DNA of 64,000 nt from Promethearchaeota archaeon. Its GTDB lineage: Archaea > Asgardarchaeota > Lokiarchaeia > Sigyniarchaeales > SOKP01. The notes beneath the pieces were generated by a model. The model made no database searches. It was given only the letters and a program-made list of their open reading frames with translations, and was not told the origin of the DNA. The DNA is taken from the NCBI GenBank assembly GCA_019058295.1, contig JAHPZI010000002.1:64001-128000 (forward strand). Direction: 5' to 3'. A program made the translations under genes and the position numbers. This document shows positions 13,484 through 42,155 of the stretch, one piece after another (positions within the stretch are counted from its first letter, which is position 1; the number at the start of each line of letters is the position of its first letter).

Positions 13484-13636
13484 TCTAGAATATAATTTGG
13501 ATAATATTGGAAAAATTTCTGAATTTAAAAATCTTTAGGAGAAAGTTATATTATTAAAAGTATGAATTAGTAATGTTTGTTATATTAATGAAATATAATC
13601 TCAATTTTTTTTAAGAAAAAACACATAATTATTATC

Positions 13637-14005: not shown

Positions 14006-14043
14006 ATGGAAAAAAATCGAAAAAAGAATTTGAGAAATAATTT

Positions 14044-14994
14044 ATGTCAGAACTAGCAATAGAAACAAAAAATTTACACTTTACTTATGGAAAAGGTAAA
14101 TCTGCTGTTAATGCGCTTAGAGGCGTAGATTTCAAAATTGCTAAAGGTGAAAATTATTGCTTATTAGGTCCAAATGGATCGGGCAAAACAACACTCATTA
14201 GATGTATTCTTGGTTTATTAAAAGGCGAAGGGTCTATTTGTCTATTAGGTCATGAAATGCCCCGTGATCAGAGTAAAATTGTTTCGCAGATTGGTTATAT
14301 GCCACAAGCAATTTCATTGTACCCTGATTTATCTGTGAAAGAGTCTTTGCACTTTTTCGGAAAGATTTTTGGAATGAATAAGCAAGAAAGAGATGAATCT
14401 GTAGAAAAACATCTTGAGATATTCTTATTAAAAGAATGGAAGAATACTAAGGTTGATAATTTATCTGGGGGTATGAAACGAAGATTATCTTTAGCATGTA
14501 GTCTCATCCATGAACCGAAATTACTTATTTTGGATGAACCCACGGTAGGTGTAGATCCGACCCTTCGGCTAAATTTTTGGGATTATTTTAAAGACTTAAA
14601 CGACCAAGGTACAACGATAATAACAACAACTCATATAATGGATGAGGCTGAAAAAAGCAGAATTATAGGTTTTATGAGAAATGGAAAATTAATTGCTGAA
14701 GGAACGTATCATGAATTAAAAAAAAAAGTTCCAGGGAAAAGGAAATTAATTATTAAGACAAAAGAAGAAGATACAACACAATTAGTAAAAACTATTTACA
14801 GTGAATATCAATTAAAAGTGCTTTCTTCTAAGTTTAAACTTGAAATCTTTTACGATGATGATTCCTTGATTGACAATATATTATCACTTGTAAGAAATCA
14901 AGTTAAAATCTTTTCAATACAGACAGAAGAACCAAGTTTGGAGGATACTTTCATATTCTTTTCGAATGAGAATGAGGTGAAATTCGCAAAATGA
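14044..14994 (+). CDS. ABC-2 type transporter ATP-binding protein
   Basis: GPNGSGKT, LSGGM, LDEPT, TTH. Confidence 0.95.
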   Translation: MSELAIETKNLHFTYGKGKSAVNALRGVDFKIAKGENYCLLGPNGSGKTTLIRCILGLLKGEGSICLLGHEMPRDQSKIVSQIGYMPQAISLYPDLSVKESLHFFGKIFGMNKQERDESVEKHLEIFLLKEWKNTKVDNLSGGMKRRLSLACSLIHEPKLLILDEPTVGVDPTLRLNFWDYFKDLNDQGTTIITTTHIMDEAEKSRIIGFMRNGKLIAEGTYHELKKKVPGKRKLIIKTKEEDTTQLVKTIYSEYQLKVLSSKFKLEIFYDDDSLIDNILSLVRNQVKIFSIQTEEPSLEDTFIFFSNENEVKFAK

Positions 14995-16508
14995 AGTTAT
15001 CAAATATTAAAGCAATAGCGATTAAAAATTTTCATCAAATAAAGAGAGACCCACGTATGATCGCTTTATCGGTAATTGCTCCTATAATCATTACAGCATT
15101 ATTCGGGTTTGTATTTGGAGGTGAATTAACCCATATCGAAATTTATATTGTCGACAAGGATAATAACTTTGAAAATGTATTTGCAACTGAAATAATAAAT
15201 AAATTTTCTGAAGATTCAAGAATTCAGTTAAATACTAGTATTTCAGATCCAAATTTAGTTAAAGCAGCAGTAGCAAACAATTTTACTCAAGCAGCAGTGA
15301 TTTTACCAAGTACGTTTACACAAGATACATTGCTTGGTCGTGGCAGCCAAATTGATTTAATTATCGGCAATTTAAGTATTAATGCGTCAAATTATGTTAT
15401 TGCCTCCTTTGAAATTAGTTTTGGTATAATTATGGCAAAATATTTTGGTGCTTCTCAACCTAAAATTGTAATAAAACAGCTTCATGAAGTATCTGATGGT
15501 AAAATACCAGATAAAATCAATGTTTCTCTTTGTAATTATGATTTAGGATGGGCACTCTTACACGACAAACTGTCTGATAAAGTTATTAAGATTTTAAAGG
15601 AAGACGATACGGTTGACATCAAAAAAGTAAAATCAATAAAGGATAATGAAGATGACATTAAAAATGGAAACAAAAGAGGGATGATAATTTTTCCTAAAGA
15701 TTTCACATATGAAGCACTAGTAAATAAGGAGATAAGTGTTGATGTTAGACTTGATGGAGCGGAACCGCAAGCATGTGGAGCAATAATGGGTGCATTAAGT
15801 GAAGCATTGTCTGATTCATTTGAGGACACATTTGATAAAAAATCTTTCAATATTAATGAATATTATTATAATAATATTGATGGAACAGATGAATCTGTTG
15901 ACCCTATTACTTATTTTACACCAGCTATAATTGGTTTTATTGGATTTTTCTTTGGATTTATTTTAACGATGTTATCCTTTATAAGAGAAAGAAAAGAGGG
16001 AACAATGGAAAGGATTTTAACATCACCATTAAAACGTTCTGAAATTATAATTGGTTATATATTATCATTCAGCATATTATCTACAATTCAAGCTGCAGTA
16101 ACGTTGATTGTAGCAATCCTTATTTTTAATGCGCAAATAGAGTTTTCCATATTTATTCTTCTACAAGCCTATTTAATTATATATCTTCTATTATTAACAG
16201 CTCTGGGAATTGGTATTTTTTTATCAACTTTAGCAAAGACTGAATTCCAGATAATCCAATTTATACCCCTAATAATTTTACCTTTTATGTTGTTATCAGG
16301 GGTCTGGTCACCAATAGAAACATTACCTGATTTTCTTCGCCCAATATCATCATTTATACCATTAACATATGCTAATTTAGCTATGCGGGATATATTTCTT
16401 AGAAATGAGACAATTCTAGATATTATTTTACCAATAGGAATTTTAGCATTATCAGCTTTTCTAATGATTTCATTAGGAATTATAAAGCTTAATAAAACAT
16501 TGAAATAA
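14991..16508 (+). CDS. ABC-2 type transporter permease
   Basis: RERKEGTMERIL.SP motif, C-terminal TM bundle, ATGA overlap with ATPase. Confidence 0.92.
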   Translation: MKLSNIKAIAIKNFHQIKRDPRMIALSVIAPIIITALFGFVFGGELTHIEIYIVDKDNNFENVFATEIINKFSEDSRIQLNTSISDPNLVKAAVANNFTQAAVILPSTFTQDTLLGRGSQIDLIIGNLSINASNYVIASFEISFGIIMAKYFGASQPKIVIKQLHEVSDGKIPDKINVSLCNYDLGWALLHDKLSDKVIKILKEDDTVDIKKVKSIKDNEDDIKNGNKRGMIIFPKDFTYEALVNKEISVDVRLDGAEPQACGAIMGALSEALSDSFEDTFDKKSFNINEYYYNNIDGTDESVDPITYFTPAIIGFIGFFFGFILTMLSFIRERKEGTMERILTSPLKRSEIIIGYILSFSILSTIQAAVTLIVAILIFNAQIEFSIFILLQAYLIIYLLLLTALGIGIFLSTLAKTEFQIIQFIPLIILPFMLLSGVWSPIETLPDFLRPISSFIPLTYANLAMRDIFLRNETILDIILPIGILALSAFLMISLGIIKLNKTLK

Positions 16509-16654: not shown

Positions 16655-17527
16655 ATGTCTGTTTATAATCCATTTTCTGAATTTAATTTTAACGATGCTG
16701 AAGAAAACATTTACAAATTACTAATTCAATTATCTTTAATTCCAAGAAAAGATTCAAAAAGTACCTACCACAAAATAAAAGCGACTGACTTGGTAGAATT
16801 CTCAAAGTATTCAAAACCAAAAGTATATGATATCATTAAGAGATTAGAAGAAAAAAGATTGATCCAGATTGATAATACTCGTCCTAAATTTGTAAAACCT
16901 ATAGAACCTGCGATTTCAATCGAGAATTTATTAAAATCGCGGAAAATTGAATTAGAAAAAGCTTCTGAATCCATAATCAATGAAATTAAATCATTACCCA
17001 AGCTGGACATTAATTACCCATTCAGTGAAGTACCCCCTCTCTCTTTCATAACAGGTTTAGAAGAATATCATAAACTTATGAGAACTATTTTACAAGGAGC
17101 AAAAGATGAAATTATCCTAATAATAGCATATCTATTAAAATATGAAGAGGATCTTTTGCGAGATTATATACAAAAAGCTGTCACAAAGGGTATAAAAGTG
17201 AGGATTCTATATGGAGGTCCACCTAAGTTTAGGATCTACTTTAGAAAGGAGATACTTGAACCGATTGGTTTGGAAGATGGTCAGACAACCACTGAAATTG
17301 ATGTTAAAGCAATTAATTTTGCCCCTCCTATAAGAATGACAATGGTTGATAATCGGGAATTAATTATGACGTTAATTAAAACTAATGTGAAAAATAAAAG
17401 AATAAACATCGAAGAAGCTTCTGCACTTTTTTCAGATCATGAAGAGCTCCTTGAATATACACGTCGCACTTATATTCTCTTAAGACCGACAGCAGATGCA
17501 CAACTTGCTGCGAAACTTAAAGGATAA
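16655..17527 (+). CDS. TrmB-family transcriptional regulator
   Basis: SKPKVYDIIKRLEEK wHTH, RPKF..IEP, C-terminal GIKVRIL..VDNRE effector domain. Confidence 0.88.
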   Translation: MSVYNPFSEFNFNDAEENIYKLLIQLSLIPRKDSKSTYHKIKATDLVEFSKYSKPKVYDIIKRLEEKRLIQIDNTRPKFVKPIEPAISIENLLKSRKIELEKASESIINEIKSLPKLDINYPFSEVPPLSFITGLEEYHKLMRTILQGAKDEIILIIAYLLKYEEDLLRDYIQKAVTKGIKVRILYGGPPKFRIYFRKEILEPIGLEDGQTTTEIDVKAINFAPPIRMTMVDNRELIMTLIKTNVKNKRINIEEASALFSDHEELLEYTRRTYILLRPTADAQLAAKLKG

Positions 17528-17758
17528 GAATATTAATGAGATATGAAAATAATAAAAATATAAGTTAATTTTTATAATGGGTTAATTTAATTTCTGAACC
17601 TTGAAAGCTTTAAAAACTCAATTTATATTTAAAGAAATGCTCTTAAATAGGTAGAAACTATAAATACTTATTTCTTCTAGTGTAACTTGAAGAATATTAC
17701 AGATCTTTCTAGAAATGTTTATTTTTTTAGCAGATTCTAATTCTAATTGTGATGAAAA

Positions 17759-20311
17759 ATGCAAACTGAGATTAAAAAACAGGTAAAAGTTCCAGAATTT
17801 AACTCAATGGATCTTCACCCTCAAAATCAAATTCAAAAAGATCGCTTATTAACAGCAGATCATTGGATCTGCTTGGAACGGGCGAAATTTTATACGGATA
17901 GTTATAAAGAGACAGAAGGGCAACATCCTTCAATCCGTACAGCAAAGGCTTTAAAGCACACCTTTGAGAATATGACTATCGCTATTTATCCTGAGGAATT
18001 ATTGGTGGGAAATAGATCTTCTCAATATATTGCACCCCCTATAGCCCCAGAAAGAGGCGACATGAATATGGTAATAAAGTTTCTTTTACCAACTCTTAAG
18101 AAAAGATATGGATATCATATCACGAAAGAGCATAAAAAATGGCTTAATAAAGAGATTATACCTTACTGGAAAGATAAATCCGTGAGAGCTCTGAAGGTTC
18201 CATTATTTGAGGAGCATGATCTATCGGACAAACTCACTTTAGGCAATGGCGGATTAAAAAGACTAAGAAATGCGTTTGGTTTAAAACACATAGGTAAGCT
18301 GGTGACAGACCCAGATGCTAATTTCTTTGATAAAGTTAAATTCTTTTTACAATTACCAAAATGGATTAAGCTAATGAAAGTAGGTACCGCTGATAATGTG
18401 AAAGGAAGGGGAAGATGTATTGATATGCAAGGTCATATTGTTCCAGGATATAAGAATGTCGTGAAATTTGGATTTAAGGGGATAAAAGAACAAGCTGAAA
18501 ACAGATTAAAGACTGCTAAGAATGATTCAGAAAAGGGTTTTCTGGAGGGAGTTATTATGACTTGTGAAGCAATGAGGGATTTTAGTCTTCGCTTCACAAA
18601 ATTAGCTAAGGAGATGGCGAGTACTGAAACTGATGAGGAAAGAAAAAAGGAATTACTGAAAATTGCAAAAATTTGTGAAAAGGTACCTTGGAATCCTCCA
18701 GACACATTTTATGAAGCAGTCCAATCTTTCTGGTTTACTCATAATGTGGTAATAATCAGTTATGGGATGGGGGGTATGACTCCAGGGCGTCTGGATCAAA
18801 TCCTATATCCATATTATAAGAAAGATAAAGATGCCAATTTAATTACGGATGATGATGCTTTAAGGTTACTTGAAGAAGTTATCATAAAGATTAACAATAA
18901 TGTAGTTATATGGCCTAATGTATTGGGTGCTCGCCTCAACCATTTAGGTTCAGATGTTCAAGATATTACTTTTGGAGGAGTAGATCGAAATGGAGAAGAT
19001 GCAACCAATGAACTTACGTATATCTGTATGGAAGCAATAAAAAATACTAAGCTTGCTACTCAATCCTCTTTCCGAATTTCAAAAAATAGTCCTGAAGAAT
19101 ATTTAAAAAAGGTCTTGGAATTACACAAATATACAGCTGGACCAGCTTTGTTTAATGATGAGGTTATTATTAAAGCTCTTCAGAAAGATGGATATTCATT
19201 GGAAGCTGCAAGAGACTACTGTGTAGTGGGGTGCGTAGAGCCAAGTGGTAATGGAGATACATATGGAGCAACTGGAGGTACTAAACTATATTTCCCATCT
19301 ATTCTTGATTTGACATTTAATCGGGGTATTACAACCTTTTTTGGAGGGGAAAGGGATATTGATACGGGAGATCCCGTAGAGTTTAAGTCATTTGATGAGT
19401 TTATGGAAGCATATTATACTCAATTAGATCATATTGTTGATGTATGTGCTAAAGCAGGAGACTTGAGAGATCAAGTCTGGGCTGAAAACTATCATAATCC
19501 ATTGATTTCATGTACTATTGATGGGTGTATTGAAAATGCTATGGATATGACTCAAGGGGGAGCTGAACTCATGTTCCATGCAATTGGTGGCGGGGGATTA
19601 GGAACGATAGTGGATTCTTTAGCGGCTATAAAGAAATTTGTGTATGAAGAAAAAAAAGTATCTATGAACGATTTACTTCATGCTATACAAACCAATTTTA
19701 AGGATAACGAACCTTTAAGGCAAATCTTAATGAATGGTCCAAAATTTGGAAATGATGATGATTACACAGACAAAATCGCCGTAGAATTAGTGAAAAAGTT
19801 TTGTACAATGGTAAAAAGTAAAAATTTGTCAATGGGAGATTTTTTCAAACCAAGTTTTAGTTCTTATGGTCTAAATGTATATGAAGGAGCATTAGAACCC
19901 GCAACTCCGAATGGAAGAAAAGCGGGTGAGCCAATTTCAAACGCAATCTCTCCTTGTAATGGTGCTGAACTGAATGGTCCTACCGCAGCATTAAATTCAG
20001 TAGCTAAAATTGACCATACGAATATAGGATATGGTGATTCTCTGAATATGAGGTTCCCACCCTTCTTAACAGATAATGATAAGGGACTTGAAACCTTTAA
20101 GAATTTGCTTGAAACCTACTTTGAAAAAGGAGGAATGCATCTTCAAGTCAATAATATGGGAACTGACACATTAAAGGATGCTCAACTAAATCCTGAAAAT
20201 TATCCCGATTTAATTGTACGGGTTTCTGGATATTCAGCCTATTTTACAAGGCTTGGCAGGGCAATCCAAGATGATTTGATAGATAGAATTGAATTTTGTA
20301 ATTGTTTTTAA
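17759..20311 (+). CDS. Glycyl radical enzyme 1 (PFL2/dehydratase-type)
   Basis: Cys loop GCVEP; Gly loop RVSGYS; GRLDQ; ATPNGR. Confidence 0.95.
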   Translation: MQTEIKKQVKVPEFNSMDLHPQNQIQKDRLLTADHWICLERAKFYTDSYKETEGQHPSIRTAKALKHTFENMTIAIYPEELLVGNRSSQYIAPPIAPERGDMNMVIKFLLPTLKKRYGYHITKEHKKWLNKEIIPYWKDKSVRALKVPLFEEHDLSDKLTLGNGGLKRLRNAFGLKHIGKLVTDPDANFFDKVKFFLQLPKWIKLMKVGTADNVKGRGRCIDMQGHIVPGYKNVVKFGFKGIKEQAENRLKTAKNDSEKGFLEGVIMTCEAMRDFSLRFTKLAKEMASTETDEERKKELLKIAKICEKVPWNPPDTFYEAVQSFWFTHNVVIISYGMGGMTPGRLDQILYPYYKKDKDANLITDDDALRLLEEVIIKINNNVVIWPNVLGARLNHLGSDVQDITFGGVDRNGEDATNELTYICMEAIKNTKLATQSSFRISKNSPEEYLKKVLELHKYTAGPALFNDEVIIKALQKDGYSLEAARDYCVVGCVEPSGNGDTYGATGGTKLYFPSILDLTFNRGITTFFGGERDIDTGDPVEFKSFDEFMEAYYTQLDHIVDVCAKAGDLRDQVWAENYHNPLISCTIDGCIENAMDMTQGGAELMFHAIGGGGLGTIVDSLAAIKKFVYEEKKVSMNDLLHAIQTNFKDNEPLRQILMNGPKFGNDDDYTDKIAVELVKKFCTMVKSKNLSMGDFFKPSFSSYGLNVYEGALEPATPNGRKAGEPISNAISPCNGAELNGPTAALNSVAKIDHTNIGYGDSLNMRFPPFLTDNDKGLETFKNLLETYFEKGGMHLQVNNMGTDTLKDAQLNPENYPDLIVRVSGYSAYFTRLGRAIQDDLIDRIEFCNCF

Positions 20312-20324
20312 GGTTATGGTTAAA

Positions 20325-21848
20325 ATGTCTAAAATAAAAGAAATATATAAAGAAATTGAAAACATCGTCGGGTCTGATTATGTTTCTGATAAAGATTTCA
20401 TGAAAGCGGCATATTCTAGGAATGTAGATCCTGCCTTTCCCGATAGATGGGCTGATGTAATAGTTAGACCTGAAAATGCCGAGGAAGTTTCTGATATTGT
20501 GAAAATTGCAAATAAGTATAAGATACCTATTGTTCCAAGAGGCGGCGGGGCTGACTTGGTTGGCGGGTCAGTCTCAGAGGGTGGGATTTTGATGGACCTC
20601 ACTCGGATGAATAAGATCATAGAAATTAATGAAGATGATTTTTACTGTTTCGTTGAGTGCGGTATTACTTGGGGAGAATTGAATTCAGCACTTCTCAAAA
20701 AGGATTTGACTGTTGGGATTATTGGTCCTGGCAGCGGATTTAGTGCGACAATTGGAGGGGGATTATCAAATAATACAGCAGGATTTGGATCAACCAAATA
20801 TGGATTAATTACTGAAAATTGTCTTGGTGTCGAAGTTGTTTTAGGAAATCCTGAGGGTTCAATCATAAGAACTGGTTCCATTGCCAATCAATTTGCCAAA
20901 CCTTTTTGCAGGTATGGAGTCACTCCCGATTTTACAGGTATATTTCTTGGAGATGTGGGCACCATGGGTATAAAAACGAAGGCCGCCTTGAAACTTTATC
21001 CACATCCCCCTTATAAAATCAGAAAAAACTATATGCTATTGAAAAATGATTATAATCTACTTTTTAAAGTAATGAAGAAGTGTCAGACTGAACTTAGAGA
21101 TGGAATGCAAGATTTGTATGTAACTCCGCTTACAGCTGTAAAGGTATTGGCGTCTCAAGTAAAAAAAAAACCTCAAAAAAGAGCTAGAATAAAAGGACCT
21201 ATTTTACTTTTTATTTTAGAGGCTTTTAATGAGCGAATTCTAAAGATTTATGAAGAAACGCTTTCAGATATTATGAAAGATGTTGCTAGACCATTTGAGT
21301 GGACAGAACTAGATTTGACGGCAGAGTCAACAAAGGAATGGCGGTTTAATTTAGGTTTTTCATATACATATTTTAATAAATTTGTTTCACTTGCCCCACC
21401 GAAGATATCTTGTACCACATGTCATAAAATTCCTATATCTTCGATGGCTGAAAAGAAAGCGCTTAGTTCAGAATTTGATGATGCACATAAGGGTGAATTT
21501 CCACCCCAAAGTGTCGCATTATTTGCATCTTCAATCCATTTAATATCAAATGGTCATTGTGTTTTTGCTGGAGGATTTGCCACAGACAATATAGAATCTT
21601 CTCGGGACTTAGCAATGAAAATTTGGCATAAAAGGGTTGCAAATCAAGCTAAATATGGGGGCGTACATTATTGGTTAGGCGAATCGATTTCCCAATCAAT
21701 CGTTGAGTCGGGAGCACTTACCCCTGATTTCCTAAAATTTTTCAAAAACATTAAAAAAAGTGTGGATCCGAATTTTCTTTTAAGTCCAAAGAAATTCCAT
21801 ATGTATTCGTATAAAGATGATATAAATAAATACATTAAAAAAGAATAG
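20325..21848 (+). CDS. FAD-binding oxidoreductase (GlcD/D-lactate dehydrogenase/VAO superfamily)
   Basis: VRPE..EEV, PRGGG, TIGGG, DPNFLLSP; ATG at 20325 avoids overlap with GRE1. Confidence 0.9.
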   Translation: MSKIKEIYKEIENIVGSDYVSDKDFMKAAYSRNVDPAFPDRWADVIVRPENAEEVSDIVKIANKYKIPIVPRGGGADLVGGSVSEGGILMDLTRMNKIIEINEDDFYCFVECGITWGELNSALLKKDLTVGIIGPGSGFSATIGGGLSNNTAGFGSTKYGLITENCLGVEVVLGNPEGSIIRTGSIANQFAKPFCRYGVTPDFTGIFLGDVGTMGIKTKAALKLYPHPPYKIRKNYMLLKNDYNLLFKVMKKCQTELRDGMQDLYVTPLTAVKVLASQVKKKPQKRARIKGPILLFILEAFNERILKIYEETLSDIMKDVARPFEWTELDLTAESTKEWRFNLGFSYTYFNKFVSLAPPKISCTTCHKIPISSMAEKKALSSEFDDAHKGEFPPQSVALFASSIHLISNGHCVFAGGFATDNIESSRDLAMKIWHKRVANQAKYGGVHYWLGESISQSIVESGALTPDFLKFFKNIKKSVDPNFLLSPKKFHMYSYKDDINKYIKKE

Positions 21849-21883
21849 ATTTGAGACAATTTTAAATAAAAAAAGGATGAAAA

Positions 21884-22684
21884 ATGAGTTTTAGAAGAGA
21901 ATTAGAAGATATTAAAAAGAAAAAAGAAGAAATGATTACCAGCGTTTTTAAAGGAGCAGAAATGGTCTGGGTATTATGGGAAACTAAAAAGGAAGTTGTT
22001 GAGCGAGTACTCCCTCCCCCGTTGGAACCACTGAATCGTCCAATTGCTCTTGCGTTTGTAGCTAACTATCCCTCTCATTCATATGGATTGCCTTACAGAG
22101 AAGCAGCATTAATTTTAAGGTGTAAATATAAAGCTGAATTGGGAAATTACTTCCTTGCGATGCCCCTGACAGACGATAGAGCTACATTTGCTGGTAGAGA
22201 GATATTTGGCTTCCCAAAAAAAATCGCAAATGTCCATTTTGAGAAGAATGGAAACAAAATTTACGGATTTTCTGAGCGCAATGGAGTTAAAAATATTGAA
22301 ATTAAACTGAATATTACAGGTAAGTTCAATGATGTGGAAACCCCTAAAATTGTGTCTGAGATCCAAATGATTCCAAAAAGAGGTAAAGGAACTGTTAATT
22401 ACCTTTTTAAACATTTTCCCCATCCAACTAAAGAAGGATTTGATTATACCCCTTGGTTGATAAAGCAGGTAACTAAATCTAAAATCAAATCTATGCAAAT
22501 GGGAGAAGCTGAAATTACTTTAAATTCAACAATCCATGATCCATGGGGGGAAATTGAAGTTGTAAAAATTTTGGGGGGCATGTATTTACAATCTGAGAAT
22601 GAAATGTTCCCAGGAGAAATACTTACAGAAGTAGATCCTGATGAATTTTTACCCTATTCATACATTAAATGGGATTGGTATTAA
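21884..22684 (+). CDS. Acetoacetate decarboxylase-family protein
   Basis: LPPPLEP, YREA, GREIFGFPKK Schiff-base lysine motif. Confidence 0.9.
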   Translation: MSFRRELEDIKKKKEEMITSVFKGAEMVWVLWETKKEVVERVLPPPLEPLNRPIALAFVANYPSHSYGLPYREAALILRCKYKAELGNYFLAMPLTDDRATFAGREIFGFPKKIANVHFEKNGNKIYGFSERNGVKNIEIKLNITGKFNDVETPKIVSEIQMIPKRGKGTVNYLFKHFPHPTKEGFDYTPWLIKQVTKSKIKSMQMGEAEITLNSTIHDPWGEIEVVKILGGMYLQSENEMFPGEILTEVDPDEFLPYSYIKWDWY

Positions 22685-22713
22685 AAATAAGTTTTTAAAT
22701 TTAGAAGATTAAG

Positions 22714-25269
22714 ATGAGCGAAAGAATTAAAAGATTGCGTAAAAGATACCAGACAGAAATGCCAAAAATTTCAATTGAAAGGGCAAAATATTATACAGAT
22801 CAGTGGTTCGAAACTGAGAATAATGGAACCCCCCAGAATATACGAGTTGCACTTTCAATGAAGAATGTATATAAAAACATGACTCATTATGTAGATCCCG
22901 ATGATAGGATTGCAGGTTATTGGACTGAGGATTTTATGGGGATACCAATTGATATTGAACGGGGGGTTTTCAATAAAGTGTTTGAGACGGAACTTAGTTG
23001 GTGGACTCTTTTACGTTTCAGAATAGGAGCAATCCTAAAGTCCTTTAAATTCTTACGTGAAAAAGAATATTTGCATGACTTTCTACAAAATAATAAGAGA
23101 CTCCGCAAAGAAGGTTCCCAACCTTTAAATTTTGGAGTCAAAACAATGGAAAAAAGAAAAATAAATCCCTTTAAAATTAATAAGAAAGATAAGAAAATTT
23201 TATTGAAAAAACTCCTTCCGAAATGGAATGGGAACACGCTAGTAAATATACTAGAGGATGAAATTCCGAAAGCAGGTATTCTTTCAGGAAGTATGGTAGA
23301 ATTTTCTAATGCTATGCCCGCAAATACCTCTAGGCAAACTAAAATGATTAGTATGTGTGCTACAATATCTACTTACCAAGGCCATGTTATAATAGATTAT
23401 GAAACCCCAATTAAAAAAGGTTTGCTTAAAATGAAGGAGGAGATTGAGGTTGAAATTGAAAATAGTTCGTCATTATCCTCAGATGATTTAAATACATTAA
23501 AATCCCTTAAGACGGCAATAGAAGGAGTCATTATCTTCGCAGAAAGACTAGCTGAAAAGGTTGAATCTGAATATAACAAAGCAACCGATTCTACACAGAA
23601 AGCGATCTTAAAAAGAATGTTAGAAAATTGTAAAAAAGGTCCCTTATATCCAGCAGAAACTTTTTATGAGGCGATACAATCAGGATGGACAGTAAAAACC
23701 GCTATTGAGTTAGCACATCCTGTAAATTTACATTGTTTTGGTCGTATGGATCAAATATTTTATCCTTATTATAAAAAGGATATTGAGAATGGTATTATTA
23801 CCCAAGATGAGGCAAGAGAGCTATTAGAAGAACTTTTACTAAAAGTTATGTCTCAGAATATCAGACCAGAAACAAACTTGCTTGCAAATTTTTATCATAG
23901 ATTTTTAGGTTCTACTCCAATAACACTTGGAGGACTAAAACCTGATGGGACAGACGCAACTAATGAATTAACCTATCTTTTTCTCGAGGCTGCTAATAAT
24001 TCAAGGGCAGTAACAAATATCTCTCTCAGAATTAATGAAGCCACGCCCGATGATGTATTGTTGAAAGCAGCAGATGTTTTATATCAAGGGAGTTCAAATC
24101 TCTCGTTTTTTAATGATGATGTTAATGTAGAGTCGATGAAAAAAAGAGGCTTTTCTGAAGAGGATGCCCGCGATTATGCTGTAATGGGATGTGTAGAAAT
24201 GCTCTGTCCTGGTAAAACAGGGGGCATGAGCGCTAATGCATTACTTCTATGTAGGTTGTTAGATCTCACATTGCGTAATGGTGATTCTCAAACTTTTATG
24301 GGTCTTATTAAAGAATTAGGACTTAAAACTGGTGAACCAGATTCTTTCTCTACATTTGAAGAATTTTTGGAAGCCTTTTTAACTCAAGCAAATAAACAGG
24401 TAAAATTGCTTGTTGATGTCTCAAATCTTCGCGATCAATTATATGCTAAATATTTACCAGCTCCATATATCTCTGCTTTTATAGAGGGATGTATAGAAAG
24501 TAGGAAAGATGTTACTCAAGGAGGGGGAAAATATGATTTATCTGGTATCTCCTTCATCAATAGTATTGCCAATTTAACCGATTCTTTATATGTTATTAAG
24601 AAACTCATCTTCGATGAAAAGATAACAACTTTTAAGGAACTTATGAATGCAATAGATATGAATTATAACGGCTATGAAGACCTCTATTATAAAATTCTAA
24701 AATTAGAGGGTAAATGGGGAAATGGTTATAAAGAAGTCGACGATCTATGTCATTATGTTTCTAAACAGCTATTCGAAGACACATATAATTATACTTCTTA
24801 TAGGGGGGGAGCATTTGTCCCGTATCTTATCAGTATGACAACACATACTATTGATGGTCGAATCTCTATTGCAACTCCAGATGGTCGTAAAGCTGCTAGT
24901 CCTTATGCTGCAAGCTGTAATCCATATAATGTAGAAAAATGTGGTATAACCAACGTATTCCATTCCGTTTCTGCTATAGATTATGAAGATGTATTAGGAT
25001 GTGCTGTAAATGTAAAGTTTCATCCCACAGCCATAGGAGAAAAATTAGAAAATCGTGAAAAATGGATTGCTTTAATCCGCGCATATTTCGAATTAGGTGG
25101 ACAACAGGTACAACCCACTGTCGTTTCTGCTGAAATGCTTAAAGAGGCACAAGACAATCCAGGCATGTATGGAGATTTAATTGTTAAAGTTGGAGGATAT
25201 TCTGCATATTTCTGTGAGTTAGGTATTGAAATCCAAAATGAAATTATTGCTAGGACAGAACATGAATAA
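22714..25269 (+). CDS. Glycyl radical enzyme 2 (PFL2/dehydratase-type)
   Basis: Cys loop GCVEM; Gly loop KVGGYS; GRMDQ; ATPDGR. Confidence 0.93.
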   Translation: MSERIKRLRKRYQTEMPKISIERAKYYTDQWFETENNGTPQNIRVALSMKNVYKNMTHYVDPDDRIAGYWTEDFMGIPIDIERGVFNKVFETELSWWTLLRFRIGAILKSFKFLREKEYLHDFLQNNKRLRKEGSQPLNFGVKTMEKRKINPFKINKKDKKILLKKLLPKWNGNTLVNILEDEIPKAGILSGSMVEFSNAMPANTSRQTKMISMCATISTYQGHVIIDYETPIKKGLLKMKEEIEVEIENSSSLSSDDLNTLKSLKTAIEGVIIFAERLAEKVESEYNKATDSTQKAILKRMLENCKKGPLYPAETFYEAIQSGWTVKTAIELAHPVNLHCFGRMDQIFYPYYKKDIENGIITQDEARELLEELLLKVMSQNIRPETNLLANFYHRFLGSTPITLGGLKPDGTDATNELTYLFLEAANNSRAVTNISLRINEATPDDVLLKAADVLYQGSSNLSFFNDDVNVESMKKRGFSEEDARDYAVMGCVEMLCPGKTGGMSANALLLCRLLDLTLRNGDSQTFMGLIKELGLKTGEPDSFSTFEEFLEAFLTQANKQVKLLVDVSNLRDQLYAKYLPAPYISAFIEGCIESRKDVTQGGGKYDLSGISFINSIANLTDSLYVIKKLIFDEKITTFKELMNAIDMNYNGYEDLYYKILKLEGKWGNGYKEVDDLCHYVSKQLFEDTYNYTSYRGGAFVPYLISMTTHTIDGRISIATPDGRKAASPYAASCNPYNVEKCGITNVFHSVSAIDYEDVLGCAVNVKFHPTAIGEKLENREKWIALIRAYFELGGQQVQPTVVSAEMLKEAQDNPGMYGDLIVKVGGYSAYFCELGIEIQNEIIARTEHE

Positions 25270-25284
25270 AAAAGAGGTGTAATC

Positions 25285-26790
25285 ATGGTTTATATTCCAG
25301 GATTTCTAGTAAATAAGGTGTATGAGAGAGGTAGTTTACAAAACACAGAAGATGGGTTCACATTTACGTTTAAGAATACTATGACTCCCGTAAAAATTAG
25401 CGGGATGAGCCAATTAAAAATAACTATTGATGGTGAAATTTCAATCCCGCAAGAGAATGTGGAACTTGAACTTGGAGGTCGAATCTTCAAGGTCTCTGGC
25501 GAACCTTTAAAGGAACTTGTAGAATTTTCAAAAAATTCAAAACTTTTTATTCGTATTAAAGGAGATCATCTCTCAAATGGAAAACATGTGTTAAAAATTA
25601 GTTTTATTACTCATGAATATGGAGGAGTCACTCTTAAAGTTAAAGATGCCATGGGAGATATTGAATATCTAACTAAATGGCAGAAATTTAAAAAGCTGTT
25701 TTCAAGAAAAAAGAAGAAAGTGGCTATAAAACCTATGATTATTGAAGGGGAGTTAGGTGGTGTTCCATTAGATCCCGATTTTTCACGATTAGAAAAGGTG
25801 ATACATCATGAAATACCTGATAGAGTACCTTTATTTGAAGCAGAAATCGAAATACCGATTAAAGAAGCCTTCTTAGGTCGTGAAATCCAGACGGCCGAAG
25901 ATGATGTCGAGTTTTACATCAGAGCAGGTTATGACTTTGTACCCGTAGTTCCTCCCTTTTTCACGCCTAGAGTAATGCGACAAGCGAATGGGGATGAGAG
26001 GAGTTGGATTACCGAAAGTGAAGGGCGCATTAAAACTATAGAAGACTTTGAAAAATTTCCATGGCCTGACCCGGATGAAGTCGACTTCTCTTCTTTTTAT
26101 GAAATAGCAGCACTACTTCCTCCAAAAATGAAAATTTTAGGATTACTTTCACCAGCCGCAGTATTTGGAAACACATCCCAATCAATGGGATTAACTAATT
26201 TTTCTTATGCCCTATATGATAATATTGAATTAGTTGAAGCCTTATTCGAAAAAATTGGTTCTTCTTATTTAAAAATAGCAAAACGGCTTGCTAAAGTACC
26301 AAAACTAGGAGCAGTACTAATGTCAGACGATCTAGCACATACAGGAGGGTGTTTTATAAATCCAAAAATTTATAGAAAATACGTGTTCCCGTGGTATAGA
26401 GAGATAGGACGTGTTTTTGAGAATGCGGGCATTCCGTTTATTTTTCATTCTGATGGCAATTTTATGGCTGTTTTTAATGATTTAGCAGATTGTGGTGTCA
26501 AGGCAATTCACCCAATTGAGCCTCAGGCAATGAATATTGTAGAAGTTAAGAAAGAATATGGTGATAAGTTCTGTATTTTTGGTAATATAGATCTTGAATA
26601 TACATTGACCAGAGGAACCGTGGAAGAAGTCGAAGCACAAGTGAAACAAAGAATAAAAGAACTCGCACCCGGTGGAGGCTGGGGGTGTGCTGCTTCAAAT
26701 TCCATCCCTGATTATGTTAAACCTGAAAATTTTAAGGCGATGGTTGAAGCTGTCAAAAAATATGGTAAATATCCTATAAATATTGAATAA
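25285..26790 (+). CDS. UroD/MtaA-family methyltransferase-like protein with extra N-terminal beta-rich domain
   Basis: PDRVP, SDD, FHSDG, GNID, GGGW..ASNS; ~150-aa N-terminal extension. Confidence 0.85.
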   Translation: MVYIPGFLVNKVYERGSLQNTEDGFTFTFKNTMTPVKISGMSQLKITIDGEISIPQENVELELGGRIFKVSGEPLKELVEFSKNSKLFIRIKGDHLSNGKHVLKISFITHEYGGVTLKVKDAMGDIEYLTKWQKFKKLFSRKKKKVAIKPMIIEGELGGVPLDPDFSRLEKVIHHEIPDRVPLFEAEIEIPIKEAFLGREIQTAEDDVEFYIRAGYDFVPVVPPFFTPRVMRQANGDERSWITESEGRIKTIEDFEKFPWPDPDEVDFSSFYEIAALLPPKMKILGLLSPAAVFGNTSQSMGLTNFSYALYDNIELVEALFEKIGSSYLKIAKRLAKVPKLGAVLMSDDLAHTGGCFINPKIYRKYVFPWYREIGRVFENAGIPFIFHSDGNFMAVFNDLADCGVKAIHPIEPQAMNIVEVKKEYGDKFCIFGNIDLEYTLTRGTVEEVEAQVKQRIKELAPGGGWGCAASNSIPDYVKPENFKAMVEAVKKYGKYPINIE

Positions 26791-26804
26791 AGAGAGGTTC
26801 TATA

Positions 26805-27434
26805 ATGGAAAAATTAAAAGAATTAGTAGTAGAAGGATATAATAAAGATACTGTGGAAAGAATAAATATACTTTTAGAGAAAGGTAACAGCGCAGAAGAT
26901 ATTTTAAACAAAGCGTTGATTCCAGCTATGGATAAAGTAGGAGAATTATTTCAAAAAAATGAATATTTTATTCCAGATTTGTTGATCGCCTCAAGAGCAA
27001 TGGAAGAAGGGATGGAAATTCTAAAACCATTACTAGCCAAAGGAGAAAATACGAAATCCTTGGGAAAATTCGTCCTTGGTACAGTCAAGGGTGATCTACA
27101 TGACATTGGTAAGACCTTAGTAGAATCTGTACTGAAAGGTGCGGGATTTGAAGTGATAGATCTTGGAACTGATATTCCTCCTGAAAAATTTGTAGAGGCA
27201 ATAAAAGAGCATAATCCTTTCGCAGTTGGATTAAGTGCCCTTCTTACAATTACTATGATAGAAATGGAAAATGTAGTGAAGGCAATAAAAGAGGCAGGAT
27301 TACGGGATAAAGTTAGAATCCTGCTTGGAGGAGCTCCTGTAACTAAAGAATTTACAGAAGAAATAGGAGCAGATTTCTATGGAGAGGATCCTCATTCAGC
27401 AAAAAATTACCTCCTAAGTGTTATTAAACAATAA
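26805..27434 (+). CDS. Corrinoid (B12-binding) methyl-acceptor protein
   Basis: GDLHDIG (DxHxxG), SALL, GGAP. Confidence 0.95.
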   Translation: MEKLKELVVEGYNKDTVERINILLEKGNSAEDILNKALIPAMDKVGELFQKNEYFIPDLLIASRAMEEGMEILKPLLAKGENTKSLGKFVLGTVKGDLHDIGKTLVESVLKGAGFEVIDLGTDIPPEKFVEAIKEHNPFAVGLSALLTITMIEMENVVKAIKEAGLRDKVRILLGGAPVTKEFTEEIGADFYGEDPHSAKNYLLSVIKQ

Positions 27435-27519
27435 AAATAATATTTTATTAAAAATCTATAAAAAATTTTAATATTAATTTTACTATCTTGTAATCATCAA
27501 ATAACATTAAAAAAAAAAA

Positions 27520-28656
27520 ATGATAAAAATGATGAAAATAGAAAAATTGCCAAGAGAATGCGAAGAATATATGACTCCTAAGGAAAGAATTACAGCAATG
27601 ATTATGAGAAAGAAATGCGATAGAATCCCTGTTTTTCCATTTGTTTCTGCCGCAGCAGCACAAATACTTAAACTTAATTATGGAGAATATGCACAAAAGC
27701 CAGATTTATTTTTACGTGCGCAAATTGAAGCTCAAAAATTATTTGGCTACGATGCGATTACTGCGATGCCAGATTTATGTGTTGAAGCTCAAGGTTTTGG
27801 AGCGAACATAATTTATCCTGATAATAACGCTGCTTATCCAGATCCATATAATCCTGTAATAAAAGATCCTAGTGGATATAAGACTATTGATAAATTATTT
27901 GATTGGTCCCATGCAGACAGAATGAAAAATCAACTAAAGGTTGTAAGTACTATAAATGATCAATTACCCGATATGATGATTGGGGGAATGTCTATAGGTC
28001 CACTAGGACTCATTTCAAGACTTAGAAATGTTAATGAATTTGTACGAGACTTCATTCGGCATCCAGATTTAATCCATGAGGCATGTGAAAAAGTAACTGA
28101 TATTCAAATTGAATATATAGAGAAACAAATTGAGGCAGGAGCGAGGACTATAATGCTACCAGTTGTTTTAGCTGAGAGAGAACTGATGAGTAAAGAAATG
28201 TGGTTAGAATTTGATATGCCTTACCAACAGCGGATTGCTAAATTTGTCAAGAGAAAAAAGGCTCTATATTGTATACATACATGTGGTCGTGGGCCTTATT
28301 TCGATCTTTTAATTGAACACCTTAAACCTGTTCTTATCCAGAATGCTTTTTTACCGGATGGTGTTAAAACCGAAGAGGAAATGGTTGAAAAATATGGTAG
28401 AAAGTTAGTATTCTTAGGTTTTCTAAGTGTTGCATTGCTTGCTTGGTCAAGTCCTATGGAAGTAATAGCAGAATGTAAAAGAGAGCTTGAAGTCTTTGGA
28501 AAATCTCCCGCAGGATATTTTCTTGGAGCATCGTGTGAATACCCTCCATATGCTCCTTTATACAATGCACTGGCAGTAGTAAAGGCTGCTAGAATGTACG
28601 GGGCTAATTTTAAAACTGGAGAAGGACCAGATTATGAAGAGGAGGGTGCAACCTAA
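27520..28656 (+). CDS. MtaA/CmuA-type (UroD-family) methyltransferase
   Basis: DRIPVFP, DLCVEA, HTCG and ASCE zinc ligands. Confidence 0.9.
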   Translation: MIKMMKIEKLPRECEEYMTPKERITAMIMRKKCDRIPVFPFVSAAAAQILKLNYGEYAQKPDLFLRAQIEAQKLFGYDAITAMPDLCVEAQGFGANIIYPDNNAAYPDPYNPVIKDPSGYKTIDKLFDWSHADRMKNQLKVVSTINDQLPDMMIGGMSIGPLGLISRLRNVNEFVRDFIRHPDLIHEACEKVTDIQIEYIEKQIEAGARTIMLPVVLAERELMSKEMWLEFDMPYQQRIAKFVKRKKALYCIHTCGRGPYFDLLIEHLKPVLIQNAFLPDGVKTEEEMVEKYGRKLVFLGFLSVALLAWSSPMEVIAECKRELEVFGKSPAGYFLGASCEYPPYAPLYNALAVVKAARMYGANFKTGEGPDYEEEGAT

Positions 28657-28658
28657 AA

Positions 28659-29297
28659 ATGTCAAGAGAAGAAATTTTAGAAAAACTCAAGAATAGTGTT
28701 ATAGATTGCGATGAAGAGATTGCAAAGGAAGCTGCCAAAGAAGCTTTAGAGGCGGGAATCGATCCGATGGAGGCTTTAAAAGAGGGGCTTTATATGGGTT
28801 TGAAAGAAGTTTGCAACCAATATGAAGAAACTGTTTATATAACAGAAATGATATTTGCCTCAGATACATTTTATGCGGGTGCTAATATATTAAAAGCAAG
28901 TATAGATCCGGAAAAATTAAAAAAAAATAGAAAAGGTATTGCTGTGATTGGTGTTGTTGAAGGAGATATTCACGATCTTGGCAAAAATATGGTAAAATAT
29001 CTAATGGAAGCAGAAGGCTTTGAAGTTCATGATTTAGGATTTGATGTAAAAGCAGAGAGATTTATAGAAGAGGCAGAAAAATCTAACGCAGACCTCATCT
29101 TAATCTCATTGATGTTAAGTTCAATGTATCCAGAGATAAGTAAAATCGTCGGATTAGCAAAAGAAAAAGGTTTAAAAGCAAAAATAATGGCTGGTGGAGG
29201 ACCAGTTTCAGAAGGAATCGCTCAAAAATATGGCGCAGAGGGATGGGCTCTGACTGGTCCCTTAGCTGTTGAAAAAGCTTTAGACTTACTTAAATAG
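28659..29297 (+). CDS. Corrinoid (B12-binding) methyl-acceptor protein
   Basis: EGDIHDLG, GGGP. Confidence 0.95.
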   Translation: MSREEILEKLKNSVIDCDEEIAKEAAKEALEAGIDPMEALKEGLYMGLKEVCNQYEETVYITEMIFASDTFYAGANILKASIDPEKLKKNRKGIAVIGVVEGDIHDLGKNMVKYLMEAEGFEVHDLGFDVKAERFIEEAEKSNADLILISLMLSSMYPEISKIVGLAKEKGLKAKIMAGGGPVSEGIAQKYGAEGWALTGPLAVEKALDLLK

Positions 29298-29337: not shown

Positions 29338-30765
29338 ATGGTTATAACTCCTACTAAAATTTATGAAGATTTTAAGAATAATATTTTAGATAAACATTCC
29401 GCTGTTGATATTTTAATCTCACTAATAGAAAATAGTAAAAATAATAACATAAGAACTGAAAGCGTTGGATTTATTGAAAAAATTGGATATAACCACGATA
29501 AAATCTTTAGACTTTTTGAAAACTTATTAATATCAGATTCGAATAAAGAAGTTAGAATTGCTGCTGCTAATGCAATATATAAAAATTTTTTAGATAAGGC
29601 ATTAAGCCCTATGATGTATTCAATTCTTAATGAATCATCATTAGAATGCTTGAATATAGTTAAAAATTCTTTAACCAATATAATAAAAACATTGTTAGAA
29701 AGAGATGATAATTTCTCTAAACCAATCCTAATTAAAGAAATAAAGAAGATATCTAATCAAAAATTTAACGATAACTTGTATGATCTGATTAAGGAAGGTC
29801 AAATTAAAGAATTTTCAAGGAATGAATTAGCTCAAGTGTTAATTGATTACATTACAATTTCATTATTAAAAAAACAATTCCAAAAATTAAATTTCGAGTT
29901 AGAAAATGGAACAGTTAAAAAATTAGATTTAAGATTTAGATATTATAACATATCCTCCGAGTTAATATCGCCTTCTTCTCCAGTAATAATTCCGATCTTC
30001 AAAAATGATGGATTAGATACTCAATCAGGGTCAATTAATCCTCTATCTTCTTGTACTGAACTACATTTAAGTTATAATTCTTTAAAAGAACTTCCTAATT
30101 GGATAAAATCCCTTTCTTCTCTTGAATCTCTATATTTACATGGAAATTACTTAACTAAGCTTCCAGATTGGATTGGTTCTATAAGCTCGCTTAAAACAAT
30201 TGGATTATCTAGAAATAAATTATTGTCGCTCCCTAAATCTTTATTGGATCTTAGCTTGCTTAAATATTTGGGATTAAGCAATAATAATCTTAAATATGTA
30301 CCCGAATGGTTAGGATCACATAATTCGCTTGAAAAATTATGGTTGGATAATAATCATATTTTATCCCTTCCTGAGTCGCTTAAATCGCTTTCTTCGCTAA
30401 AATCTCTCTATTTAGGAAATAATAATTTAAGGATCCTTCCCGAAATTTTTGAGTCATTTAAATCTCTTAAGGCTCTATGGCTGGAAGGGAATGACATAGA
30501 AAAACTCCCTGAATCAATAGGTTCTCTCTCTTCCCTTGAATATTTATATTTGAATGATAATAAAATAAATGAACTTCCAAAGTCAATTAGTAAGCTTTCT
30601 TCGTTGAAATACTTACATCTTAATAATAATATGCTGATGAAAATTCCTGAATCGTTAGAACATCTCTCATCACTTAAAGGATTATGGTTAAAGGGTAATA
30701 ATTTAAAGGAAATACCTGATTCTATAAAAAAATTGAGAGAGAGAGGGGTTTCAGTTCATATCTAA
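29338..30765 (+). CDS. Leucine-rich repeat protein with N-terminal HEAT-like region
   Basis: ~10 tandem 23-aa LxxLxLxxNxLxxLP repeats; LISDSNKEVRIAAA. Confidence 0.92.
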   Translation: MVITPTKIYEDFKNNILDKHSAVDILISLIENSKNNNIRTESVGFIEKIGYNHDKIFRLFENLLISDSNKEVRIAAANAIYKNFLDKALSPMMYSILNESSLECLNIVKNSLTNIIKTLLERDDNFSKPILIKEIKKISNQKFNDNLYDLIKEGQIKEFSRNELAQVLIDYITISLLKKQFQKLNFELENGTVKKLDLRFRYYNISSELISPSSPVIIPIFKNDGLDTQSGSINPLSSCTELHLSYNSLKELPNWIKSLSSLESLYLHGNYLTKLPDWIGSISSLKTIGLSRNKLLSLPKSLLDLSLLKYLGLSNNNLKYVPEWLGSHNSLEKLWLDNNHILSLPESLKSLSSLKSLYLGNNNLRILPEIFESFKSLKALWLEGNDIEKLPESIGSLSSLEYLYLNDNKINELPKSISKLSSLKYLHLNNNMLMKIPESLEHLSSLKGLWLKGNNLKEIPDSIKKLRERGVSVHI

Positions 30766-33784: not shown

Positions 33785-33796
33785 CTTCTCTCCCTC

Positions 33797-36158: not shown

Positions 36159-36313
36159 AATTTATCAACTTTTTTTGATTAGAATTTTTTTTTTAAAAAG
36201 TATATACTAAAAAATAAAGATCGTGCTATTTATAAGATTAACGCATTGAAATTTAAAAAAAAAAAAAGCTGAAATTTTCAAATCTTTTTTCAAAAAATAA
36301 AAAAAAAAAGAAA

Positions 36314-42064: not shown

Positions 42065-42155
42065 ATTTCATTTCTCTATTTTTTTTTTTTTCCATTCTTA
42101 TTTTTATTTGATTAATGTAATTTTGTTTTGATTTTTAAAAAAAGGGATTTACATA

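Follow-up and report, generated by a model that had tools for sequence, protein, structure and literature searches.

A composite gene island in a Lokiarchaeia-like archaeon joins a glycyl radical enzyme, an acetoacetate-decarboxylase-like protein and a capped corrinoid methyltransferase

We analyzed a 64-kb stretch of DNA (the window, about 31% GC) on contig C2 of a 3.2-Mb Promethearchaeota (Lokiarchaeia-like) metagenome-assembled genome (MAG), 79% complete, and in particular a run of genes that encodes two glycyl radical enzymes (GREs) and two pairs of UroD-type methyltransferases and corrinoid proteins. Genes were called from the open reading frame (ORF) listing and from Pfam and NCBIfam scans of the window proteins. 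The run begins with a TrmB-like helix-turn-helix regulator (16655..17527; PF01978, 31 bits), which is followed by GRE1 (17759..20311; PF02901, 575 bits, and PF01228, 101 bits; Cys492, Glu494, Gly824), a VAO/GlcD-type flavoprotein (20316..21848; PF01565, FAD_binding_4), a protein of the acetoacetate decarboxylase (ADC) family (21884..22684; PF06314, 163 bits; Lys112/Lys113, Glu73) and GRE2 (22714..25269; PF02901, 489 bits, and PF01228, 74 bits; Cys493, Glu495, Gly828). Next come MT1, a capped UroD-type methyltransferase (25285..26790; PF01208 [URO-D], 85 bits, and N-terminal PF25653), corrinoid protein 1 (Cor1; 26805..27434; B12-binding_2 and B12-binding domains, DLHDIG at residues 97-102), the MtaA-type UroD methyltransferase MT2 (27520..28656; PF01208, 167 bits; His253-x-Cys255...Cys339) and corrinoid protein 2 (Cor2; 28659..29297; the same two domains, DIHDLG at residues 103-108). 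Near-identical DNA is present in sediment metagenomes from several studies.

These nine genes had been named in an initial annotation made from the sequence alone, and their positions, their location on the + strand and their domain content were all borne out by the ORF listing and the Pfam/NCBIfam scans. They had also been described as co-directional with short spacers. Order and strand stand, and a tenth co-directional gene can be added, which encodes a leucine-rich-repeat (LRR) protein (29338..30765, +; Pfam). An AT-rich spacer of 231 nt, a promoter region, separates the TrmB-like gene from GRE1, and an AT-rich gap of 85 nt lies ahead of MT2. Each spacer from GRE1 through Cor1 is at most 35 nt, MT2 and Cor2 are 2 nt apart, and 40 nt precede the LRR gene. 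The flavoprotein ORF is listed from a TTG at 20289 that overlaps GRE1; its start is most likely the ATG at about 20316, just past the GRE1 stop.

Comparison with other genomes revealed that this nine- or ten-gene cluster is a composite of three modules: module A (TrmB-like regulator, GRE1, flavoprotein and ADC-like protein), module B (GRE2, MT1 and Cor1) and module C (MT2, Cor2 and the LRR protein). The initial annotation had read the run as a single unit that couples two GREs to two methyltransferase-corrinoid pairs, an interpretation that is only partly supported. The linkage between a GRE and a corrinoid methyltransferase holds for GRE2 and MT1, with or without Cor1, in Asgard relatives and in bacteria and in several gene orders, but not for GRE1, which is tied to the flavoprotein and the ADC-like protein; MT2-Cor2 is distributed on its own. 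Synteny across Asgard genomes recovered GRE2-MT1-Cor1 repeatedly, but not the nine genes as one conserved set.

Full-length MT1 (cap plus barrel) was detected in 5 of 400 Asgard genomes, in which UroD-type methyltransferases are generally abundant. Among the close relatives, those with visible context (genomes G167 and G168 and two JGI contigs, about 80% identity) have the order GRE2-MT1-Cor1, and in all Asgard loci seen the gene right after MT1 is Cor1. G168 has a second, diverged operon with the order GRE2' (60%)-activase-MT1' (78%)-Cor1'-variant radical SAM-TauE permease. Four of the five MT1-positive Asgard genomes contain a GRE2-family gene, compared with 35 of the 395 others; this co-occurrence is supportive only, because related genomes are not independent.

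Several neighbors of module B in these relatives were also recorded. In the second operon of G168 (locus L043, 12373-14576, contig C167), the gene after Cor1' encodes a "variant radical SAM" protein (NF045502, 376 bits) and the next one a TauE/SafE-family permease. The island on a JGI contig of a relative at about 80% identity (Ga0452209_001631; L047, 14778-18028) has a duplicated GRE1, three unknown small ORFs before GRE2, and three radical-SAM/SPASM genes plus a flavin oxidoreductase after Cor1. Upstream of TrmB on the same contig, a sulfatase and an anaerobic sulfatase-maturase-like gene are divergently oriented, and the same sulfatase pair lies upstream in L048.

Bacterial operons were located by scanning species genomes with an ADC alignment. 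Their order is TetR-MT1 (63%)-GRE2 (58-61%)-activase-HpnA/SdmB-like reductase-short-chain dehydrogenase/reductase (SDR)-ADC (39-43%)-acyl-CoA-dehydrogenase-like (ACAD), and bacterial carriers of the module belong to Thermodesulfobacteriota, Actinomycetota and unclassified MAGs. When metagenomes were scanned with an MT1 alignment, 39 loci with orthologues of at least 55% identity were recovered, 14 of which contain a GRE2-family gene (directly adjacent in 11). The contigs of these 14 loci range in GC content from 0.33 to 0.62. When the count was restricted to loci in which 1 kb or more could be seen on each side of MT1, GRE2 was present in 7 of 14. No GRE was found beside cap-less MT1 relatives (40-45% identity) in about 40 loci, where these genes form classical methyltransferase-corrinoid pairs.

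At least five gene orders keep GRE2 together with MT1, namely GRE2-MT1-Cor1; GRE2-activase-MT1-Cor1; TetR-MT1-GRE2-activase with the following genes; GRE2-MT1 on high-GC contigs; and TetR-GRE2-activase-ADC-ACAD...MT1-Cor1. In the tree of GRE2 sequences, those from Asgard archaea group in a single supported clade amid bacterial ones, and linkage to MT1 is found on both sides and across the whole tree. The bacterial MAG G400 (L126, L127) carries two paralogous GRE2-activase-reductase-SDR-ADC-ACAD operons, with MT1 ahead of only one of them. No corrinoid gene was detected by tblastn beside MT1 in this locus (L127), and two Cor1 orthologues (57%) are encoded elsewhere in the G400 genome, within general methyltransferase islands. 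Paralogous operons with and without MT1, together with Cor1 orthologues in such islands, fit a role of MT1 as an optional, substrate-specific front end. Among 29 high-GC loci, a corrinoid gene adjoins MT1 in eight.

To characterize MT1, we analyzed its AlphaFold model (pLDDT 88.5). Residues 1-125 are predicted to form a beta-sandwich cap, followed by a Lys-rich linker and an MtaA/UroD-like barrel. The top Foldseek match of the modelled barrel is MtaA (4AY7, TM 0.75). An earlier suggestion that the N-terminal domain resembles the beta subunits of C-glycoside deglycosidases is upheld by a match of the modelled cap to DgpB/CarC (TM 0.60-0.66, E about 1e-7), and the model suggests that the cap may serve as a lid for a bulky substrate. 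Family alignments revealed that MT1 lacks the H-x-C zinc motif and has FHSDG instead, and its Cys468 is not conserved. The lack of a thiol-activating zinc site fits a role in methyl transfer from substrate to cobalt (MT I). MT2 retains the MtaA zinc ligands His253, Cys255 and Cys339 and is barely alignable with MT1. Both methyltransferases score below all NCBIfam MtaA/MtbA cut-offs. Cor1 and Cor2 each contain a B12-binding_2 cap, a Rossmann domain and the DxHxxG motif. The genome encodes 13 UroD-family genes, about eight small corrinoid proteins and one pterin-binding gene.

Both GREs have the PFL-like domain, the Gly_radical domain, the thiyl Cys loop and the radical Gly loop of the glycyl radical enzyme superfamily, and they are 32% identical to each other. 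The motifs are GCVE (Cys492, Glu494) and RVSGYSAYF (Gly824) in GRE1 and GCVE (Cys493, Glu495) and KVGGYSAYF (Gly828) in GRE2, so that the Cys-x-Glu and Gly loops reported initially are both present; a single-Cys loop, which had been taken as the mark of eliminases, is not exclusive to them. Placement was based on curated HMM cut-offs and PDB scores. The cut-off of TIGR01774 (PFL2/glycerol dehydratase, 678.2) is missed by both GRE1 (575.9) and GRE2 (469.6). Among families of characterized specificity the HypD equivalog scores best (556.8 for GRE1 and 419 for GRE2, against 1100), and the other families score lower; the cut-offs for CutC, HpsG/HpfG, indoleacetate and 4-hydroxyphenylacetate decarboxylases and PFL are likewise not reached, the two proteins reaching about half of each. 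Their nearest solved relatives are glycerol dehydratase (GDH; 486 bits for GRE1, 342 for GRE2), CutC, HypD and propanediol dehydratase.

GRE eliminases work through a Cys/Glu dyad. Pairwise alignments (1R8W, 6VXC, 5I2A) showed that the general-base Glu of eliminases, two residues after the Cys, and the equivalent of GDH His164 (His226 in GRE1) are kept in both proteins. The positions of GDH His281/Ser282 and Asp447 and of HypD Asp278 are replaced by Gly-Gly and Gly in GRE1 and by Asn-Leu and Ala in GRE2. Thus, the previous assignment of the two GREs as uncharacterized members of the PFL2/eliminase class holds, since they fall under every curated cut-off and the substrate-contact residues of GDH, HypD and CutC are replaced. 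Within each GRE family, Asgard and bacterial members are 55-63% identical. The GRE2 motifs AHPVNLHCFGR, MGCVExxCPGKTG and KVGGYS are kept nearly invariant from Asgard archaea to bacteria, which argues for one conserved specificity.

The genome has eight GRE paralogues, no two of them more than 43% identical. No GRE activase is encoded in the 64-kb window. Three TIGR02494 activase matches were found elsewhere in the genome: an orphan on C30, one beside another GRE on C21, and one fused to a GRE on C3. An activase adjoins GRE2 homologues in L043, in L222 and in the bacterial operons. The fused gene on C3 (about 12957-15776; L003/L016) is a 1092-aa ORF whose N-terminal activase part, with radical-SAM and ferredoxin clusters, is joined to a full GRE.

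The ADC-family protein had been listed in the initial annotation but not singled out; it proved to be the most constant and most widely conserved partner of GRE2. Of 20 GRE2-family genes, 13 have an ADC gene no more than 6 kb away, and the remainder sit mostly on truncated contigs. Catalysis by ADC uses a Schiff-base lysine. In the window protein, the lysine pair of the GFPKK motif (Lys112/113) and Glu73 align with those of solved ADCs, and both GFPKK and the Glu are also invariant in the bacterial ADCs beside GRE2 homologues (39-43% identical). The protein scores 61.6 bits against an NCBIfam ADC subfamily cut-off of 150, and the position of the carboxylate-binding Arg of CvADC is occupied by Ala. 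Members of this subfamily are always accompanied by an oxidoreductase: FAD plus CCG proteins in Asgard archaea, ACAD in Desulfobacterota, and SDR in Clostridium and Paenibacillus. Sbi00515 and MppR also belong to the ADC family.

Module A recurs in several Lokiarchaeia-like genera. The 400 Asgard genomes were searched with the ADC-like protein, 20 regions were taken and their ORFs clustered. A flavoprotein followed by a CCG iron-sulfur protein and ADC is a near-universal unit (22 of 23 loci), which a GRE adjoins in nine loci. The order TrmB-GRE1-flavoprotein-(CCG or hydrolase)-ADC is repeated in several genera and JGI contigs, and TrmB lies upstream of GRE1 in L017/L047, L018, L022/L053, L039/L064, L048/L165 and L049. 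In the flavoprotein only the FAD-binding domain is recognizable; its PDB matches are confined to residues 13-243, where p-cresol methylhydroxylase (100 bits) and D-lactate dehydrogenase (96 bits) match equally well and do not discriminate the substrate class. Contig C22 (208679-213058) carries two flavoprotein paralogues, 59% and 66% identical to that of the window, followed by a CCG partner that is 77% identical to the CCG protein inside the islands of relatives. Therefore, the partner absent from the window is encoded elsewhere in the genome.

Module C is chromosomal backbone beside the MetF/MetV genes. MT2 has orthologues (74-92%) in 28 of the 135 family genomes, and its distribution is independent of that of MT1. 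The membership of MT2-Cor2 in a GRE unit, as first proposed, is not supported: the pair is missing from G167 and G168, the two closest genomes with GRE2-MT1-Cor1, and is present in the sister species G173, which has no ADC, GRE2 or MT1. The G173 locus reads CDC48, a 202-aa gene, a 352-aa gene, another 352-aa gene, MT2-Cor2-LRR (LRR protein 87% identical, same position), a restriction-modification (RM) methylase, MetF and MetV. A similar MT2-Cor2/RM/MetFV arrangement was observed in another genus, and the island of G167 directly adjoins the RM methylase and MetFV. Because G173 has the backbone without the island, the segment 13637-27434 is an inserted island with conserved flanks on both sides, and MT2-Cor2-LRR belongs to the backbone. 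Genus g11 has MT2 orthologues downstream of a GRE2-like gene (52%) and an activase, a gene order that may reflect a functional tie between MT2 and GRE2-type enzymes.

The left part of the island (13637..16508, +; Pfam) consists of a 122-aa ORF and an ABC-2 type transporter (ATPase 14044-14994, permease 14991-16508). These genes are bounded by the conserved flank (CDC48, 208-aa and 358-aa genes) on one side and by the regulator on the other, and they are absent at the same locus in G173 and G168. No significant direct repeats were found flanking the island. On its right, an Eco57I/TaqI-type RM methylase (30766-32718) lies between the methyltransferase genes and MetFV, a position kept in three genera (G167, G173, G178). 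It is followed by a MetF/MetV-type methylene-tetrahydrofolate reductase pair (32855..34468, -; Pfam; syntenic in G167, G173 and G178) and, between this and the second MetVF locus, by two tandem paralogues of about 498 aa (34659-37807) that have no Pfam match; the first of these is 76% conserved at the same place in G173. The second MetV-MetF pair is preceded by HdrC, HdrB and a 1160-aa HdrA (40394-47068). In this HdrA the flavin module is doubled and an MvhD domain is fused to it, and the whole is an acetogen-like MetFV-Hdr arrangement in an archaeon. Far upstream (3295-7884) lie a 179-aa ORF and, after it, the gene for a 1335-aa BNR/Asp-box protein whose C-terminus carries a double zinc ribbon.

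Taken together, we propose that the locus holds an accessory catabolic island whose core is formed by GRE2, the ADC-like Schiff-base enzyme and MT1/Cor1, and that demethylation is followed by radical elimination and then by Schiff-base chemistry, an order we infer; we give this reading a probability of roughly 0.55. In such a pathway, MT1 would demethylate an O-methylated substrate, with Co(I) on Cor1 as the methyl acceptor, and thereby unmask a hydroxyl. GRE2 would be activated in trans by one of two stand-alone activases whose genes lie outside the window; it would then abstract a hydrogen with its thiyl radical, and the Cys-x-Glu dyad would eliminate the neighboring group to give a carbonyl compound. 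This product could be bound by Lys112/113 of the ADC-like protein and decarboxylated or cleaved. Redox steps might be carried out by the flavoprotein, and in bacteria by the two SDR-type reductases and the acyl-CoA-dehydrogenase-like protein. GRE1, under the same TrmB-like regulator, probably acts on a related, perhaps unmethylated, substrate. The methyl group would leave Cor1 for tetrahydrofolate and enter the MetVF/Hdr branch encoded next door; with two MetVF pairs and an HdrABC-MvhD set downstream in the window, this branch is a plausible sink for methyl-tetrahydrofolate.

As for the substrate, our leading guess, a tentative one, is a methoxylated aromatic or glycoside-like compound whose side chain is hydroxylated. 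The hints are weak: the UroD-type MT I, the capped pocket, the VAO/PCMH-like flavoprotein, the CCR/DFR-like and SDR reductases, hydrophobic residues in the GRE2 loops and the sediment habitat. Alternatively, O-methyl sugars or cyclitols could be the substrates. Carnitine-type elimination to acetoacetate, cleavage of 2-(methylthio)ethanol or 2-methoxyethanol, and hopanoid or sterol side chains (suggested by the HpnA/SdmB-like reductase of the bacterial operons) were also considered and not adopted, for lack of evidence.

Several observations weigh against a shared pathway. About half of the informative MT1 loci have no GRE2, Asgard GRE2 orthologues at 68-72% identity occur without MT1, and in bacteria the majority of MT1-GRE2 operons have no corrinoid gene close by. 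The window itself has no activase, and the CCG partner of the flavoprotein is missing from its copy of the cluster. No match to a RamA/RACo-type corrinoid activator (PF14574) was found in this 79% complete genome. In addition, some adjacency could be due to chance because the genome has 13 UroD and 8 GRE genes.

Such points fit mere co-location, in which GRE, flavoprotein and ADC form a catabolic unit and the methyltransferase-corrinoid pairs belong to the ordinary O-demethylase-like repertoire of Lokiarchaeia near an insertion site. This view also draws on the MT2-Cor2-LRR backbone that G173 has without the island, on the many UroD-family, small corrinoid (about eight) and GRE genes of the genome, and on the GRE2 and MT1 orthologues that stand apart. 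We nevertheless consider it unlikely, since MT1 and GRE2 are adjacent in at least five gene orders over a GC range of 0.31-0.62 in both archaea and bacteria, GRE adjacency was never seen for the cap-less relatives, and a compact GRE2'-activase-MT1'-Cor1' operon exists; even a second methyltransferase type, MT2, follows a GRE2-like gene and an activase in genus g11.

The order of steps could also be reversed. In a CutC-like scheme, GRE2 would cleave a C-O, C-S or C-N bond next to a carbinol, and MT1/Cor1 would demethylate the small leaving group (methanol, methanethiol or a methylamine-like compound) and pass its methyl group to tetrahydrofolate. The Cys-x-Glu dyad and the 1,2-eliminase His of both GREs agree with this scheme, as does the TauE/SafE-family permease in the paralogous G168 operon, and UroD-type enzymes handle methylthiols in methanogens. 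However, MT1 has no zinc-thiolate site with which to activate thiols or methanol, its cap resembles that of C-glycoside deglycosidases and would suit a bulky substrate, and its tight co-variation with GRE2 is unexpected for a generic small-molecule enzyme. The paralogous bacterial operon that lacks MT1 is better explained by an optional pre-processing step. Elimination before demethylation is thus distinctly unlikely.

It is also conceivable that MT1 is no methyltransferase at all but a UroD-fold decarboxylase or lyase that acts on the GRE2 substrate without B12, Cor1 serving another enzyme in Asgard archaea. The lack of a zinc site, the scarcity of adjacent corrinoid genes in bacterial MT1-GRE2 operons and the Foldseek scores of UroD decarboxylases, which are close to that of MtaA, would agree with this. 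We regard it as highly improbable, because Cor1 comes right after MT1 in all Asgard loci, a corrinoid gene adjoins it in 8 of 29 high-GC loci, the bacterial MAG retains Cor1 orthologues at 57% identity, the top match of the predicted structure is MtaA, and relatives at 40-45% identity are classical methyltransferase-corrinoid pairs. Finally, single-Cys Asgard GREs have been annotated as alkyl- or benzylsuccinate synthases (Ass/Bss) that activate hydrocarbons on the basis of 29-33% identity (Zhang et al. 2021; PMC8163825), but this label is unfit for GRE1 and GRE2 and has next to no chance of being right here, because succinate synthases score far below the eliminases (MasD 267/192 and TutD 247/177 bits, against 486/342 for glycerol dehydratase), the cluster contains no small-subunit ORFs, and the eliminase Glu and His are kept.

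We therefore retain demethylation, radical elimination and Schiff-base chemistry as the preferred sequence. A bolder and improbable extension of it would be that GRE2 and MT1/Cor1 together form a new two-cofactor system for the O2-free breakdown of methyl ethers beyond the reach of ordinary O-demethylases, with O-methylated sugars, cyclitols or lignin side-chain units as substrates, and that this system spread by horizontal gene transfer between Asgard archaea and sulfate-reducing sediment bacteria. In the most radical version of this improbable scheme, the substrate radical generated by the GRE would react with the cobalt-methyl carrier itself, so that a radical methyl transfer would occur without a radical-SAM enzyme.

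GREs and corrinoid methyltransferases are the two main tools of anaerobes for chemically hard bond cleavages. We found no description of the two working together: literature on GREs combined with ADC, a corrinoid protein, an O-demethylase or ether/demethylation yielded nothing relevant, and a preprint on Hodarchaeales microcompartments mentions GREs in its references only. The initial remark that no characterized operon with such a combination was known is in line with this. Although the kinds of enzymes are known, their conserved combination, the capped MT1 family and the GRE2 and ADC-like subfamilies were not found described in the searchable literature. The GRE2-ADC-MT1 neighborhood, conserved across domains in Asgard archaea and sediment bacteria, points to an undescribed anaerobic breakdown route for a methylated compound. 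If this is true, the route is a new catabolic one, the methylated compound must be common in anoxic sediments, and its C1 units would be fed into the folate branch of the Wood-Ljungdahl pathway. The results also correct the customary labelling of Asgard GREs as Ass/Bss enzymes that activate hydrocarbons. Two new GRE families, one ADC-like subfamily and one capped methyltransferase family obtain concrete genomic partners, which makes a substrate hunt practical.

Among known systems, UroD-fold MT I enzymes and corrinoid proteins make up the Mto/Mtv O-demethylases, and Lokiarchaeota homologues of such methoxydotrophic systems have already been noted (PMC8630106, PMC8359953). The Mto/Mtv/Odm systems (MtoB-MtoC-MtoA-MtoD), known from methoxydotrophic archaea and acetogens, share with our locus a UroD-fold methyltransferase beside a corrinoid protein of about 210 aa that carries the His-on motif DxHxxG, and the host has a methyl branch of the folate type (MetVF, Hdr). 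MT1 differs by its N-terminal beta-sandwich cap, which is not described for MtoB/MtvB; in addition, no RamA/RACo activator gene was found, MT1/Cor1 is embedded in a GRE operon, and MT2-Cor2 is a separate unit. MtaA of Methanosarcina mazei (4AY7) is the top structural match of the MT1 barrel, and its H-x-C...C zinc ligands are kept in MT2, but MT1 has FHSDG and is 17% identical to MtaA. To our knowledge, coenzyme M metabolism is not expected in this archaeon.

The C-glycoside deglycosidase beta subunits (DgpB, CarC; 7BVR, 7DNM, 8QVC, 9M3B) resemble MT1 in the fold of the cap and in the pairing of a small beta-sandwich with a TIM-like barrel. In MT1, however, the cap is part of the same chain as the barrel instead of forming its own subunit, the barrel is of the UroD/MtaA type and not xylose-isomerase-like, and neither a metal site nor 3-keto-sugar chemistry is implied. 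The acetoacetate decarboxylases (CaADC 3BH2, CvADC 3BGT) and the ADC-like protein have in common a whole-length Pfam ADC match, the E-x-x-G-F-P-K-K motif and a buried Glu; the latter differs in falling below the subfamily cut-off, in having Ala for the Arg of CvADC and in always standing beside an oxidoreductase, often with GRE2.

With the GRE 1,2-eliminases (1R8W, 5I2A, HypD 6VXC, CutC 5FAU, HpsG/HpfG/IslA), GRE1 and GRE2 share the PFL-like fold with a C-terminal glycyl radical domain, the Cys-x-Glu loop, the equivalent of GDH His164 and a probable dependence on a PflA-type activase with extra ferredoxin clusters; such activases are encoded elsewhere in the genome and, in relatives, next to GRE2 homologues. 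They differ in bit scores of about half of each equivalog cut-off and in the replacement of substrate-contact residues. In place of an adjacent activase, a microcompartment shell or an aldehyde dehydrogenase, their partners in the window are an ADC-like protein, a flavoprotein and a corrinoid methyltransferase.

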